Shown: positions 1,027 to 8,806 of the stretch, piece by piece
Layout: each line of letters opens with the position of its first letter
How positions within the stretch are numbered: the first letter of the stretch is position 1
Origin: a virus
Lineage: Duplodnaviria; Heunggongvirae; Uroviricota; Caudoviricetes
IMG/VR virus record: IMGVR_UViG_2711768076_000006
Span: 1-9,481 of that record
Length of the DNA: 9,481 nt
Strand: one strand, 5' to 3'
Position numbers and translations under genes: made by a program
Notes under the pieces: generated by a model
Seen by the model: the letters and a program-made list of their open reading frames with translations, nothing else
Databases searched by the model: none
What the model was told of the DNA's origin: nothing

Positions 1027-1055
1027 GGAAAAAACAAAACCCGCCGAAGCGGGTT
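1027..1055 (-). terminator. Rho-independent terminator downstream of hok
   Basis: On the - strand, hairpin AACCCGC-TTCG-GCGGGTT followed by TTGTTTTTTCC, about 70 nt after the hok stop. Confidence 0.6.
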
Positions 1056-1123
1056 AAGTGCGGGTGCGTTGAGGATGCCTGACACATCAGAGGTGGCGAG
1101 GGATTTCTCCCCCGCCTGGTCTC

Positions 1124-1279
1124 TTACTCCTCAGGTTCGTAAGCTGTGAAGACAGCGACCTCCGTCTGGCCGGTTCGGATTCGTACCTCGCAGAGGTCTT
1201 TCCTCGTTACCAGTGCCGTCACTATGACGGTTAAACAGATGACGATCAGGGCGATTAACATCGCCTTTTGCTGCTTCAT
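1124..1279 (-). CDS. hokD: Hok/Gef-family type I toxin, 51 aa membrane peptide
   Basis: MKQQKAMLIALIVICLTVIVTALVTRKDLCEVRIRTGQTEVAVFTAYEPEE is a canonical Hok sequence and matches HokD/RelF as I recall it. AAGGAG lies 9 nt upstream of the ATG at 1279. Confidence 0.85.
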   Translation of the reverse strand: MKQQKAMLIALIVICLTVIVTALVTRKDLCEVRIRTGQTEVAVFTAYEPEE

Positions 1280-1336
1280 AGCCTGCTTCTCCTTGACCTT
1301 TCGGTCCGTAAGAGGCAATCTATATGTGACGAGCAT
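1124..1336 (-). CDS. mok: Mok reading frame (in-frame N-terminal extension of hok that couples hok translation)
   Basis: ATG at 1336 in frame with hok adds MLVTYRLPLTDRKVKEKQA, which resembles the N-terminus of chromosomal Mok peptides (mokC MLNTCRVPLTDRKVKEKRA from memory). Confidence 0.55.
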   Translation of the reverse strand: MLVTYRLPLTDRKVKEKQAMKQQKAMLIALIVICLTVIVTALVTRKDLCEVRIRTGQTEVAVFTAYEPEE

Positions 1337-1378
1337 ATAGGGGCCTCACTTCGATTTATAGTCGGGTGGGGCTTTTAT
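1315..1378 (+). ncRNA. sok: Putative Sok-type antisense RNA opposite the mok translation start
   Basis: Inference from hok/sok architecture. + strand TTGACC at 1293-1298 is a possible -35, but no good -10 hexamer follows at 16-19 bp spacing. Imperfect hairpin GCCTCAC (1343-1349) / GTGGGGC (1365-1371) is followed by TTTTAT. Boundaries are approximate. Confidence 0.3.
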
Positions 1379-1471
1379 CTATCTGCCGTTGGTGTTCATG
1401 CCCGAGGCAGATAGCCTCAAGCACCCGCAGCAATTCTACTTAACTCTGCCGTTACAGCAAACCGTTTTCGC

Positions 1472-1495
1472 CCGATATGGGAATTCCCATATCGG
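1472..1495. repeat. 24-bp perfect palindrome CCGATATGGGAATTCCCATATCGG, function unknown
   Basis: The sequence equals its own reverse complement. It lies between the solute-binding-protein gene 3' end and the hok leader, with no U-run on either strand, so it is not a canonical terminator. Confidence 0.9.
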
Positions 1496-1560
1496 AATGA
1501 ATTCAGTTCACCTGGCGAGGCTTAGCGTACAATTTTTTCCGTTTTGTGAGCTGCCCCTAC

Positions 1561-1612
1561 ATGCCGCTGGCGCGGCATCCGGAAAAAGAATCCACGTCCT
1601 GAAGGACGTGGA
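1561..1612 (-). terminator. Rho-independent terminator region for the solute-binding-protein gene
   Basis: On the - strand, hairpin TCCACGTCC-TTCA-GGACGTGGA (1591-1612) followed by TTCTTTTTCC, then a second hairpin ATGCCGC-GCCA-GCGGCAT (1561-1578); starts 6 nt after the stop at 1618. Confidence 0.55.
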
Positions 1613-1617
1613 GGATG

Positions 1618-2376
1618 TCAAGTGCCTTTCCTGGTCCAGCCATATTTTTTGAATGCAGGCGCCGCTTCATCGGTTTGTAGCCATTCTGCAAATCGACGGG
1701 TTTCATCATTTGCATCCTGACGTACTGTAATGTTCATATCACGCCATATCACGTAGTCTGGCGCTATTTCCACGACATCACCAATTTCTGGATTACTGGC
1801 TGCCCAGTCAGCCCAGGTTATCCAGACATCTGCTCCAGGCTGATTCTCAAGAGCCTTACGTGCAGTTCCGCTATTGGGCGCATATAAAATAATATTTTTT
1901 CGGATTGCGGCGACAGTTTCTATATTCCCTTTACGTCCGGCAATATCTTCCCAGACGCCAGTGCCTGATGTATTACTGGTACCACCACCATCATTAACAA
2001 TTACGCCAATCCCGGGTCTGGTCAGGTCGTCAATACTCCGGATATTTTTAGGATTACCTTTCTTTACCAGTAAAATACTTTTTCGCAGATAAAGAGGCTG
2101 AATATCTTTTTCACTGAAGCTGTCTTTATGGTCCCGAATGATAGCCAGAGCAGATTGTTCTGATGCGCCAAACAAGATATCTGCATTTTTTTTGGCATCT
2201 TCATTCCATTTGTTCTGTGGACCGTAATGAACGTTCACTATAACACCTGTTTTTTCGGCATAAAGTTTGGCTGCTTCAAGCAAGGCTGTATGCGGGCCAC
2301 CAGGACCATACAGATTGATATCAGCATAAGCAGCAGAAGACAGGAATATTAAAAAACCTGCCATTATGTTCCTCAT
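1618..2376 (-). CDS. Secreted periplasmic solute-binding protein, ModA/WtpA-like, with no cognate transporter genes in the window
   Basis: 252 aa. N-terminal signal peptide MRNIMAGFLIFLSSAAYA with an AYA-D cleavage site. Mature N-terminus INLYGPGG...AEKTGVIVNV and C-terminus ...FKKYGWTRKG follow the ModA-type binding-protein pattern as I recall it. AAGGAG 7 nt upstream of the ATG. A 260-bp AT-rich region lies upstream. Confidence 0.85.
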   Translation of the reverse strand: MRNIMAGFLIFLSSAAYADINLYGPGGPHTALLEAAKLYAEKTGVIVNVHYGPQNKWNEDAKKNADILFGASEQSALAIIRDHKDSFSEKDIQPLYLRKSILLVKKGNPKNIRSIDDLTRPGIGVIVNDGGGTSNTSGTGVWEDIAGRKGNIETVAAIRKNIILYAPNSGTARKALENQPGADVWITWADWAASNPEIGDVVEIAPDYVIWRDMNITVRQDANDETRRFAEWLQTDEAAPAFKKYGWTRKGT

Positions 2377-2540
2377 AAAAAACTCCTTTTATTGGTTATC
2401 ATGAAATAAAATTATAAACACCACAAATAATATATATTATATCCAGATAAACTTATCCGACTTTACCTCGTGCATAGCTTGTTATTTAAAGTTAACAAAA
2501 TAAGGAAAATTATACGCATATTGAAGAGTATAAACCTTAC

Positions 2541-2568
2541 ATGTTGATTACATTTTTGTAATCAACAT
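2541..2568. promoter_or_regulatory. 12-bp perfect inverted repeat (ATGTTGATTACA-TTTT-TGTAATCAACAT), candidate operator upstream of the solute-binding-protein gene
   Basis: Seen directly in the sequence, about 170 bp upstream of the ATG at 2376 in the AT-rich region. A TATAAT hexamer lies between the repeat and the gene on the - strand (near 2505-2510). Confidence 0.4.
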
Positions 2569-2794
2569 CCTGTTTGGAATAGCCAGCCTTTAATGGATAA
2601 CTATTTCTGACAATGCAATGAGTATAATCAAGTCCATCTTCCACTGAGAATTAGAGGCGGCATGCTTTTTCCGGCTCTTGCCGGATATCCGTAATTGTCC
2701 ATAATCTGCAGATTTATACCTTCTGCATGACCTGTCAGCGAAAATTTGTCCGGTGTTTCTACGGGAATGACATCAAAAGTTACACGCACTCGCG

Positions 2795-3106
2795 TTACCG
2801 TGTAGACCTACTTTCCTGCACTTGCAAGATCACAGTGGTGTAACCGTAACAGGAATTTATTCTCTGGACCGGCAGTAAATCCCTGAGTGGCGTGGTTCCC
2901 ATATCAATTTCCCGCCAGGCAGCCTCCATTGCCAGCGTACAGGCTGGAGCCATGACCTGCCCTTTAAATCTGGCCCGACCATCCCACCGGACGTGTTCTT
3001 CTCCCCTGAACTTAGGTACAGTCATCTCCAGTGGCACAAAAGTGTCAGCGCCATGATTTTTGACCGTTATCGCGCTACGGATATTTTGTTGACTGGTGAA
3101 AATCAC
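2795..3106 (-). CDS. Hypothetical protein (103 aa), weak call, possibly a gene remnant
   Basis: Track ORF that starts with GTG and has no clear RBS; no family recognised. It is in the same frame as the DUF1627-like gene but separated from it by at least three stop codons. Confidence 0.2.
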   Translation of the reverse strand: MIFTSQQNIRSAITVKNHGADTFVPLEMTVPKFRGEEHVRWDGRARFKGQVMAPACTLAMEAAWREIDMGTTPLRDLLPVQRINSCYGYTTVILQVQESRSTR

Positions 3107-3235
3107 CCCGCAGAATCAGGCTTATTCCCTTAACCCGGGATTTCATCCTGACCGCCGCCTCACTACGACCAATCAGACTGCCGATGCATTTTACCTTCAT
3201 TGTTAGTATCATGATTTCAGGCCTGCACCATCCGC

Positions 3236-4033
3236 TCATTGCCCGGACTTCCGACAAATCCCGGCAACCATATCCCGGTGCTTGTTCAACTCCCGCAGCG
3301 CGGCGCAGACTCGCTCCCACTTCTGGACATGATTCTTCGCCCTACGCAGTTCGCGATTTGCCATATGCAGCGATGGCAAAATCAAATCATCTTCTCGCGT
3401 TGCAGTAAACGATGGCAGCGACTGCACAATGTCCGCCACAGTTTCTGTTTTAATATCTTCCTGTGTTGCATCTTTCTGTACCGGTAACGCAACACCGGCT
3501 GGCTGAGGAAAGGCTTTACCATCGGTTTCCGTTACCGATACGGCTTTCGGCTTTGCTGGTAAATTATCGTCCGGCATGCAGTAACGGAATTTACCGTTCT
3601 GATTTACGCGAATCAGACGCCCTTTGCTGATTGCCATTGCCAGCGTTGAAGCTACTTTGCGTGATGTGGTACCGAACAACGTAGCCAGTTCATCCGCCGT
3701 TTGTGGTCCGCGTTGTTCAATCGTCGCGGTTAAATCGCACTCTGAGATTTTCGCTACTGTTGCTGTGGTGGTTTCTTCCGGCAGCTCTGCCTGCGCTGGC
3801 TGTTCCTGCTGAACGTTGTTATCAGCCACACGCCAGGTGTACGCGCTTTTATCAACAAAACCAGCCTTTTTCAGTTCCCATAGTTCGTTAAGCACTTCTT
3901 CACGACTGACATCAAGTCGCGCCGCAAGTTCTATGGATGTGGCTTTTCCCATTGCTTTCAGTGCGTCAAAAACAGTCTCCATTAAATTTTTTTCCTGGTA
4001 AAAATTACTTTGTGATTCCTGGCTGGACGACAT
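3236..4033 (-). CDS. DUF1627-like prophage protein with an N-terminal winged-helix-like domain and an acidic linker
   Basis: 265 aa ORF directly downstream of the DnaC-like gene, the usual position in Rac-type prophages (ydaW position). The ATG at 4033 overlaps the DnaC-like 3' end by 29 nt; the alternative ATG at 3982 ([13 protein letters not shown]...) is also possible. Confidence 0.75.
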
Positions 4034-5744: not shown

Positions 5745-6170
5745 TCAATGCGCCACCACGGCATTTCCCGCCGGACCACCACGATTCATCTGATTGAAAC
5801 CAGCAATTACCACCGCGACAAGTTCATCAGCGTCTCTCACCAGTCGTTCATGCGTATCCACCAGTTCCCGAAAATAATCGGAACTGTGGCTGCGCATCCA
5901 GGCCACCAGCGGAGGTGGCATTGCCTTTTCGATCGCTGGTAACAAAGCCTGAATTTTTTTAACCGCATCAGGGGTGTCTTTCTCCACCCAGCGGAAAATT
6001 TTCTGAGTATTGCGAGCCAGGGCTTCCGGATGGCTGTCGTCATACAGTTCCGGGAATGTCATACCCAGCTCAAAATAAGCCCGGGTTATTTCAGCTGCCG
6101 GAACTTTTTCACCGTCCGGACGCGCCCAGGCATTCATCGCCATGCGGATGTGTTCATGCTTGATTTTCAT
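5745..6170 (-). CDS. ydaT: YdaT-like protein (toxic partner of the RacR-controlled ydaS-ydaT operon)
   Basis: 141 aa. AAGAGG 10 nt upstream of the ATG; overlaps the ydaS-like 3' end by 17 nt. Position and size match Rac ydaT (about 140 aa). Confidence 0.8.
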   Translation of the reverse strand: MKIKHEHIRMAMNAWARPDGEKVPAAEITRAYFELGMTFPELYDDSHPEALARNTQKIFRWVEKDTPDAVKKIQALLPAIEKAMPPPLVAWMRSHSSDYFRELVDTHERLVRDADELVAVVIAGFNQMNRGGPAGNAVVAH

Positions 6171-6477
6171 GAATCATTTGCCTCTTGATGCTTCGGGTAT
6201 GATCGTTTTTGTCATTTGGTTGCTTCATCGACATATTCTGCGAATAACATGACGAACGTCGTAAGTATGACCAGTCAACATCAGGACGAAGTTCTTCACA
6301 CAGGACTCCACCTTTTGTTGCTCGTTCAATCGCTGGACATCTCTCGGCAGGCAACCGACGTACACCTTTGATCCATTGATTTACGCTTGGAGGCGATACC
6401 CCTAAAAGTCTGGCCATTGCTGATTGCCCACCAACAACAGCACAAGCTCGTTTGAATGAATAGTTCTCTTTTTTCAT
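6154..6477 (-). CDS. ydaS: YdaS-like Cro/HTH-type DNA-binding protein
   Basis: Start taken at ATG 6477 (MKKENYSFKRACAVVGGQSAMARLLGVSPPSVNQWIKG...), with GGAG 9 nt upstream. Divergent from the repressor, with operators in the shared intergenic region. Confidence 0.8.
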   Translation of the reverse strand: MKKENYSFKRACAVVGGQSAMARLLGVSPPSVNQWIKGVRRLPAERCPAIERATKGGVLCEELRPDVDWSYLRRSSCYSQNMSMKQPNDKNDHTRSIKRQMIHENQA

Positions 6478-6499
6478 CGAATGAACTCCAAAAAACACA

Positions 6500-6572
6500 C
6501 AATGATATTAGGCGGCGCCTAATATCATTGTCAATAGGCTATGCCTAACAACCAAGAGGTAGGGATTGCCTA
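6500..6572. promoter_or_regulatory. Right-operator-like region: three TAGGC-N3-GCCTA palindromes in the racR/ydaS divergent promoter region
   Basis: Cores at 6509-6521 (inside a 14+3+14 bp perfect palindrome, 6500-6530), 6535-6547, and 6560-6572 (TAGGG variant). Centre-to-centre spacing is 26 and 25 bp. Confidence 0.6.
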
Positions 6573-6601: not shown

Positions 6602-7078
6602 ATGCTTAGTGGTAAAGACTTAGGCCGAGCGATAGAGCAGGCCATTAATAAAAAAATTGCATCAGGAGCCGTCAAATCAAAGGCGGAGATCGCACGCCAT
6701 TTCAAAGTCCAACCACCATCAATCCATGACTGGATTAAGAAAGGTTCGATAAGTAAAGATAAACTTCCAGAACTATGGCGTTTCTTTTCTGATGTGGTTG
6801 GTCCAGAGCATTGGGGGCTTAACGAATACCCCATACCAACCCCTTCCTGCTCAGATTCAAAAAGAGAACTTTTAGACATAAACAGCCTTTATCAAGCCGC
6901 TTCTGATGAAAAAAGAGCAATTGTAGCCTTCCTCTTATCTGGAAATGCTGCGGAGCCTGGTTGGGTTGATTATGACGTTCGCGCCTACATTACTGCAATG
7001 GAAATGAAGGTAAGTAACTATCTGAAAAATCAAGAATCAGAACGGAAAAGCCAGAACATCACCAAAACGGGAACTTAA
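6602..7078 (+). CDS. racR: Prophage repressor, RacR-like
   Basis: 158 aa (MLSGKDLGRAIEQAINKK...), the same length as Rac RacR. AGGAG upstream. Flanked on both sides by the same operator palindrome family. Confidence 0.82.
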   Translation: MLSGKDLGRAIEQAINKKIASGAVKSKAEIARHFKVQPPSIHDWIKKGSISKDKLPELWRFFSDVVGPEHWGLNEYPIPTPSCSDSKRELLDINSLYQAASDEKRAIVAFLLSGNAAEPGWVDYDVRAYITAMEMKVSNYLKNQESERKSQNITKTGT

Positions 7079-8390: not shown

Positions 8391-8448
8391 TTTCTGGTGA
8401 CTTTTGGCGGTATCAGTTCTACTCCGTGACTGCTCTGCCGCCCTTTTT
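8391..8448 (+). ncRNA. dicF: DicF small RNA (antisense inhibitor of ftsZ translation) with its 3' terminator
   Basis: TTTCTGGTGACTTTTGGCGGTATCAGTTCTACTCCGTGACTGCTCTGCCGCCC plus a T-run closely matches the K-12 DicF sequence as I recall it. It sits immediately upstream of dicB as in Qin. Confidence 0.7.
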
Positions 8449-8617
8449 AAAGTGAATTTTGTGATGTGGTGAATGCGGCTAAGCGCACGCGGAACAGTTA
8501 AAACCAAAAACAGTGTTATGGGTGGATTCTCTGTATCCGGCGTTAATTGTTAACTGGTTAACGTCACCTGGAGGCACCAGGCACCGCATCACAAAATTCA
8601 TTGTTGAGGACGCGATA

Positions 8618-8806
8618 ATGGAAACGTTATTACCAAACGTTAATACGTCTGAAGGTTGTTTTGAAATTGGTGTCACTATCAGTAACCCTGTATTTACTGA
8701 AGATGCCATTAACAAGAGAAAACACGAACGGGAGTTATTAAATAAAATATGCATTCTTTCAATGCTGGCCCGTTTACGTCCGACACAAAAAGGATGCTGG
8801 CAATGA
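8618..8806 (+). CDS. dicB: Cell division inhibitor DicB (62 aa)
   Basis: METLLPNVNTSEGCFEIGVTISNPVFTEDAINKRK... matches DicB from memory. GAGGA upstream of the ATG at 8618. Confidence 0.85.
   Translation: METLLPNVNTSEGCFEIGVTISNPVFTEDAINKRKHERELLNKICILSMLARLRPTQKGCWQ

Follow-up and report, generated by a model that had tools for sequence, protein, structure and literature searches.

A gap beside paa in lambdoid Escherichia coli prophages is very probably a recombination scar of paa insertion

What occupies the 859 bp that separate the adherence gene paa from its nearest upstream neighbor in a lambdoid prophage of Escherichia coli? The DNA that we analyzed (hereafter the window, 9,481 nt of an IMG/VR virus record) is part of such a prophage, and its early-right genes lie on the minus strand. 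The interval in question, positions 2377-3235, is bounded on one side by a DUF1627 gene (3236-4033, minus strand; Pfam, E=3.7e-93) and on the other by paa, also called adfO (1618-2376, minus strand), which matches the Pfam family SBP_bac_11 (E=1.5e-34) and is named 'AcfC family adhesin Paa' in RefSeq. The locus corresponds to adfO-ckf of O-island 57 (prophage CP-933O), in which paa/adfO adjoins ckf/hokD (PMC8565820). An initial annotation of the window, which referred to paa as a moron, had left two accounts of the interval standing: the regulatory region of the moron together with a decayed gene, or a stretch that conceals a small protein or small RNA.

Clean matches to known genes run across 835 of the 859 bp (97%), leaving 24 bp, and the pieces so identified all read on the minus strand. 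We conclude with high confidence that the interval is the recombination scar of paa insertion, composed of a cut-off phage gene, a fragment of a pilin gene and the control region of paa. The first of the two accounts was therefore essentially right, except that there are two decayed genes, one for a phage helix-turn-helix (HTH) protein and one for a PapH-type pilin, next to the paa 5' region. As mosaic junctions go, the interval is ordinary, and RefSeq had annotated its main content beforehand.

The interval is also widespread. Strain AMSHJX01 carries an identical copy of the window, the PPompW phages carry the interval, and at least 80% of its length is present in 573 of 5,426 complete E. coli genomes, with all sampled copies at least 98.5% identical. 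Genomes with the interval include O157:H7, O26, O111, O121, O103, O145 and O55:H7 strains.

The portion closest to paa belongs to paa itself. A unit of ~1 kb that comprises the 5' region, the gene and its terminator (1555-2580 in the window) recurs in paa-like cassettes on three IncF plasmids (L006 4009-5033, L007 4010-5038 and L008 4001-5032), with 86-89% identity from 1555 to 2570-2580. The upstream flanks are mutually unrelated in the window and the three plasmids, and the units share a sharp 5' edge ~12 nt beyond an inverted repeat that is described below. An intrinsic terminator (1612-1591, minus strand), with a 9-bp G+C-rich stem and a T-run, is conserved in the plasmid cassettes, and the ribosome-binding site AAGGAG (2383-2388, minus strand), 6 nt before the ATG (2376-2374), is invariant in all four cassettes. 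The 204-bp 5' region (2377-2580, minus strand) has a G+C content of 25.5%, compared with 44-50% around it, and is ~80% conserved throughout the E. coli cassettes.

This 5' region is the sole part of the interval with a likely function, and we infer that, in a lysogen, it drives paa without depending on phage early transcription. A search of the literature on z2053 and on paa regulation returned expression data from rumen and rectum alone: paa (reported as acfC) was induced in strain EDL933 in bovine rumen and rectum contents, as measured by RNA-seq (PMC8524897). Such induction is fitting for a gene with a promoter of its own. Like a moron of a lambdoid phage, paa comes with a conserved, AT-rich 5' region and an intrinsic terminator of its own, and L005, a prophage similar in other respects, lacks it: there, the DUF1627 gene, an intact HTH gene, other genes and hok are found without paa. 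The difference from a moron is that its insertion brought along a pilin fragment and truncated a phage gene, and the 'intergenic' space is mostly wreckage.

Several further features were seen around the paa units. All three plasmid units lie near a RepFII replicon, and in L007 an ST enterotoxin gene is ~2 kb away. On the downstream side of paa in the window, the sok antitoxin RNA of the hokD/ckf locus was recognized at 1277-1426 (minus strand; 103.9 bits), followed downstream by a weak isrK-like match at 1034-1115 (minus strand; 27.2 bits, below gathering). Between sok and the paa terminator, ~60 bp outside the cassette edge, a perfect 10-bp inverted repeat surrounds an EcoRI site (1472-1495; CCGATATGGG-AATT-CCCATATCGG); this repeat is absent from the plasmid cassettes.

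The most conspicuous element of the paa 5' region is the 12-bp perfect inverted repeat that the initial annotation had singled out (ATGTTGATTACA/TGTAATCAACAT; 2541-2552/2557-2568, with a loop of 4 nt). It forms part of the paa cassette, at its distal edge, and is the only one of the cited signals to exceed chance: by a rough estimate, 859 bp of random sequence would hold well under 0.001 such repeats. Its 6-bp core, ATTACA/TGTAAT, is invariant in the four cassettes. The inner part of the repeat and one further TGTAA make up the motif TTACA-N4-TGTAA-N6-TGTAA (2537-2561, minus strand), a candidate regulator site that overlaps the repeat. Among 93 loci examined, the motif was found only upstream of paa-type genes and was absent from 82 others. 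One of its occurrences precedes a paa homologue of Providencia alcalifaciens (L018 1375-1399, plus strand) whose product has 68% protein identity and whose upstream region is otherwise unalignable; with one mismatch allowed, the chance expectation for the motif in the window is 0.01 matches. Downstream of the motif comes a -10-like hexamer, separated from it by 22 nt in the cassettes of E. coli and by 23 nt in Providencia. The motif had no match in the distant paa homologues of E. albertii, Citrobacter, Edwardsiella, Aeromonas and Vibrio. Among the E. coli cassettes it is not sharply distinct from its ~80% conserved surroundings, and Providencia provides one independent data point.

The hexamer itself requires a choice. 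TATAAT, noted by the initial annotation as a possible signal, occurs once on the plus strand (2623-2628) and three times on the minus strand (2411-2416, 2436-2441 and 2509-2514), which is at or near the frequency expected by chance for the composition. Of the three minus-strand copies, the one at 2509-2514 is the sole hexamer that is invariant in all four cassettes, and it is our candidate for the paa -10. A relaxed scan found no usable -35 hexamer before any of the three and no site scoring at least 9/12 at the candidate promoter; likewise, a scan for consensus promoters and terminators returned counts equal to the shuffle expectation and called no paa promoter. In the arrangement that we propose, the -10 would lie at 2514-2509, TGTAA repeats at ~-35 and ~-46 would replace the -35 element, and the inverted TTACA would be found at ~-56. 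The predicted promoter, which is AT-rich, would be activator-dependent and probably H-NS-prone.

Activator-dependent promoters in which repeated half-sites take the place of the -35 are typified by the boxes of PhoB/PhoP/CpxR-type response regulators. The paa region resembles these in having two direct TGTAA repeats 11 bp apart, ending 22 nt before a perfect -10, with no -35; it is unlike them in its extra inverted half-site and in matching none of their consensus boxes exactly. Compared with the boxes of TyrR, LacI/GalR, EvgA, CpxR, PhoP and ArcA, the motif fits none exactly in orientation or spacing. From its conservation and geometry, we predict that the motif is a probable regulator site. 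More tentatively, it might be the operator of an unnamed regulator of paa/AcfC-family colonization genes in E. coli and Providencia, or else the fixed 5' edge of a ~1-kb cassette mobile among prophages and IncF plasmids.

Alternatively, the inverted repeat might not be a protein site at all, and might act as an RNA hairpin that terminates upstream read-through into paa or as a recombination hotspot at the cassette edge. The repeat is indeed stable for its length (-13.8 to -17 kcal/mol; z of -3.3 to -3.8), and four unrelated upstream junctions fall within ~12 nt of it. However, a T-run follows on neither strand (GTAAGGTTTAT comes next on the minus strand and CCTGTTTGG on the plus strand), the terminator scan was negative at this position, and in L007 and L008 the outer arms vary without compensating changes, the 6-bp core alone being kept. 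The varying outer arms and the missing T-run together make an RNA-hairpin terminator unlikely. Moreover, Providencia retains TTACA-N4-TGTAA and the next TGTAA at equal spacing, without the longer stem. Since the core is kept where the longer stem is lost, sequence-specific recognition fits better than pairing, and we regard a hairpin or hotspot as improbable next to the regulator site.

A second inverted repeat was observed far from the interval. At 6499-6531, a perfect 15-bp repeat (ACAATGATATTAGGC-GGC-GCCTAATATCATTGT) lies in the gap between a divergent racR-like repressor gene (6602-7078, plus strand) and an HTH gene (~6154-6477, minus strand), and is probably an immunity operator.

At the opposite end of the interval, next to the DUF1627 gene, is the 5' half of a phage gene for a helix-turn-helix 'DNA-binding protein' (3068-3239, minus strand). 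Its reading frame is a 54-aa ORF (3075-3239, minus strand; RefSeq hypothetical protein WP_122996371.1) that was overlooked when the initial annotation named a 103-aa ORF as the only gene candidate. Prophage L005, which has no paa, carries an intact 93-aa 'DNA-binding protein' gene (2879-3160) directly after its DUF1627 gene, and window positions 3068-4010 align by blastn with this DUF1627-HTH region. DNA homology to the intact gene ends at 3068. Aligned with residues 9-50 of the 93-aa protein, residues 13-54 of the ORF show 71% identity; a TAG (3077-3075) occupies the position of Gln51 of the intact gene, and homology stops 7 nt further. The 93-aa protein (WP_072278261.1), whose C-terminal part is PHROG 323-like, is thus matched in its place after DUF1627 and over 42 residues, and differs in that the window copy is cut at residue 50 and has lost the HTH-bearing half. 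We read the 54-aa ORF as a truncated remnant of this phage gene.

The ORF could also be a real small gene, translationally coupled to DUF1627, that for example interferes with the full-length regulator of a co-resident prophage. Its ATG (3239-3237) overlaps the DUF1627 stop codon (3238-3236) as ATGA, it is intact in most genomes and listed as a CDS in RefSeq, its N-terminal 42 residues retain the identity to the parent protein given above, and it is matched by PHROG 30109 ('unknown function', E=4e-17). Against these points, the Pfam HTH_23 match of the parent (residues 58-84) is missing from an ORF that ends at the counterpart of the parent's residue 50, and the parent gene is annotated with a different start. 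In addition, of six related copies, the one in L009 has a frameshifted ORF, and the others show 3 non-synonymous versus 2 synonymous changes. A functional small gene at this position is, in our judgment, quite unlikely, and truncation remains our reading of the ORF.

The remnant of the phage gene is followed by the 24 bp that were left over (3044-3067). This filler lies outside the L005 blastn match, which ends at 3068, and outside the match to an intact pilin gene, which ends at 3042/3043.

The largest piece of the interval is a fragment of a PapH-type chaperone-usher pilin gene (2578-3043, minus strand), corresponding to codons 24-182 of 195. Over 465 nt, it shares 86% identity with an intact 588-bp gene (L003 5963-6550) and with a plasmid copy (L004), and intact 588-bp genes with 86% identity to the relic are present in ~266 E. 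coli records. The intact homologue is located between the major subunit and usher genes, the position of papH, with usher and chaperone genes nearby; its pap-like operon begins with a PapB/FocB regulator and is found on chromosomes and plasmids. Its product matches PapH (PDB 2J2Z chain B; E=3.5e-80, residues 24-195) as well as the Pfam family Fimbrial (PF00419), and sfpH matches at 72.8%. By tblastn, the relic was recovered as three pieces in two reading frames, with 75-85% protein identity to the intact homologue. Pfam searches with the raw ORF translations and with a hand-spliced 204-aa pilin gave no match, because the damage to the fragment is too great, and the intact DNA homologue was required to identify it.

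The lesions are extensive. Codons 1-23 are missing, and with them the start codon and signal peptide; deletions of 10 bp (2876|2875) and 5 bp (2642|2641) interrupt the frame; Gln105 has become an internal stop by a CAG to TAG change (2810-2808); and the relic ends at codon 182, with the last 13 codons, which encode the C-terminal strand, replaced by paa-cassette sequence. RefSeq annotates 2537-3070 (minus strand) as a pseudogene, 'fimbrial protein; frameshifted; internal stop'. The dN/dS ratio between the relic and intact genes is 0.32-0.40, and that between two intact copies is 0.10. The relic in L002 has suffered an additional 1-bp deletion. The fragment therefore resembles PapH and SfpH, the minor pilin that acts as terminator-anchor subunit of P-type pili, in its DNA identity to a gene in the papH position, and is unlike them in having neither signal peptide nor C-terminal strand, in its two frameshifting deletions and stop codon, and in its surroundings, since its neighbors are paa and the phage gene stump, with neither usher nor chaperone nearby. 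We conclude that the pilin fragment is a dead pseudogene. From none of the three remnants (the 54-aa stump, the filler and the pilin relic) can the original product be made, and constraint across them is relaxed or absent.

These identifications account for two features that the initial annotation had pointed to. The GTG-initiated 103-aa ORF is present on the minus strand (2795-3106), as described, and is a 'hypothetical protein' in phage records; it seeds PHROG 29700 ('unknown function', E=5e-55). It had been assigned to no recognizable family, but it contains part of the PapH-type pilin fragment and overlaps the RefSeq fimbrial pseudogene. The ORF is an artefact, which runs from the filler through pilin codons 24-79 in frame and, past the 10-bp deletion, continues out of frame. 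The second feature, a CCGGC-N4-GCCGG hairpin (2671-2684), is likewise present, and lies within pilin codons for P-A-R-A-G. These codons read CCG GCA AGA GCC GGA in the relic and CCG GCG AGA GCA GGA in the intact gene, which has no hairpin; the hairpin arose through a synonymous GCA to GCC change. Its fold has an energy of -11 kcal/mol (z of -2.5 to -2.7), and at any one loop length roughly one 5-bp stem would turn up in 859 bp by chance alone. As a signal, then, this hairpin is at chance level, a by-product of pilin codons.

How the pilin fragment came to adjoin paa was approached from both sides of their junction. Pilin homology ends at 2578-2582 and homology to the plasmid cassettes ends at 2570-2580, with a short microhomology at the junction itself (2576-2582). 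Beyond paa on the other side, no match was found to the remainder of papH or to papC; therefore, paa was not simply inserted into a pap operon that survives here. A search for a plasmid donor of the pilin sequence returned two records, at 99.6% and 95-99%, and otherwise a best match of ~86%. The 99.6% record (H107/H83) carries the same paa block.

Comparison among prophages indicates how the junction spread. A block from ~1030 to at least ~3275 is ~99% identical among prophages, whereas the adjacent DUF1627 genes differ by 7-9%; therefore, the block had a single origin and moves among prophages by homologous recombination. In six other prophages (L002 and L009-L013), segments of 1288-3239 differ from the window by 0-2% each. 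The switch to higher divergence occurs beyond ~3420, inside the DUF1627 gene, in five of the six, and from ~3275 in L010. With its near-identical 3' end and diverged remainder, the DUF1627 gene is a mosaic with a recombination breakpoint inside it. The compared prophages carry different replication modules, and the pilin lesions are common to all copies. The uniformity of the block reflects recent spread and is not evidence for functional relics. The relics differ so little from genome to genome, with so few substitutions, that weak selection could be masked.

Rfam covariance-model scans of 2377-3235 produced no match that reached gathering score or E<=1; the strongest local one was to a eukaryotic snoRNA model (E=2.5). 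Reviews of OI-57 list no sRNA. The suggestion of a hidden small protein or sRNA thus found no backing, the 54-aa ORF being a truncated remnant. By the same type of scan, DicF sRNA was seen elsewhere in the window at 8392-8443 (plus strand; 71.5 bits, above gathering), together with an STnc100-like match at 8441-8650 (plus strand; 37.7 bits, below the gathering score of 47).

Transcription of the pilin relic might still give rise to a regulatory RNA, whether an sRNA or a long leader that controls paa; the high conservation of the block among prophages and the weak promoter-like and terminator-like matches inside the relic (2650-2621 and 2795-2782, both minus strand) would be in keeping with this. 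However, no Rfam model matches, promoter-like and terminator-like sites are as numerous as in shuffled sequence, and conservation of the relic is not above that of the flanking genes of the same block. Furthermore, plasmid paa cassettes are entirely without relic sequence, and L002 tolerates its 1-bp deletion. A regulatory role for the relic as RNA is accordingly very unlikely. The relics may be transcribed in phage early read-through, and nothing points to a discrete product.

Weaker still is the notion of an insertion sequence or MITE remnant with the inverted repeat as its terminal repeat, which we reject as barely credible: the repeat does lie at a sharp homology boundary, but the opposite end of the cassette bears no further copy and has nothing similar at 1555, RefSeq annotates neither transposase nor mobile element at the locus, and 97% of the interval belongs to non-transposon genes.

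Returning to a scar of paa insertion, we propose that its pieces were assembled in two steps. The ~1-kb paa unit (1555-2580) would first have been joined to the PapH-type pilin fragment by illegitimate recombination. The paa-pilin composite would then have replaced the distal half of the HTH gene and the genes that usually follow it, downstream of DUF1627.

For O-island 57, these results mean that a conserved gap in a medically important region, beside the adherence gene paa/adfO, hides no new gene or known RNA. PHROG 29700 and PHROG 30109 appear to be built on pseudogene fragments, which is a matter of annotation hygiene. Only the conserved repeat motif upstream of paa holds some interest. 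A map of the paa control region, with its candidate -10 (2514-2509) and its repeat motif (2537-2561), could aid work on the expression of paa in the gut.
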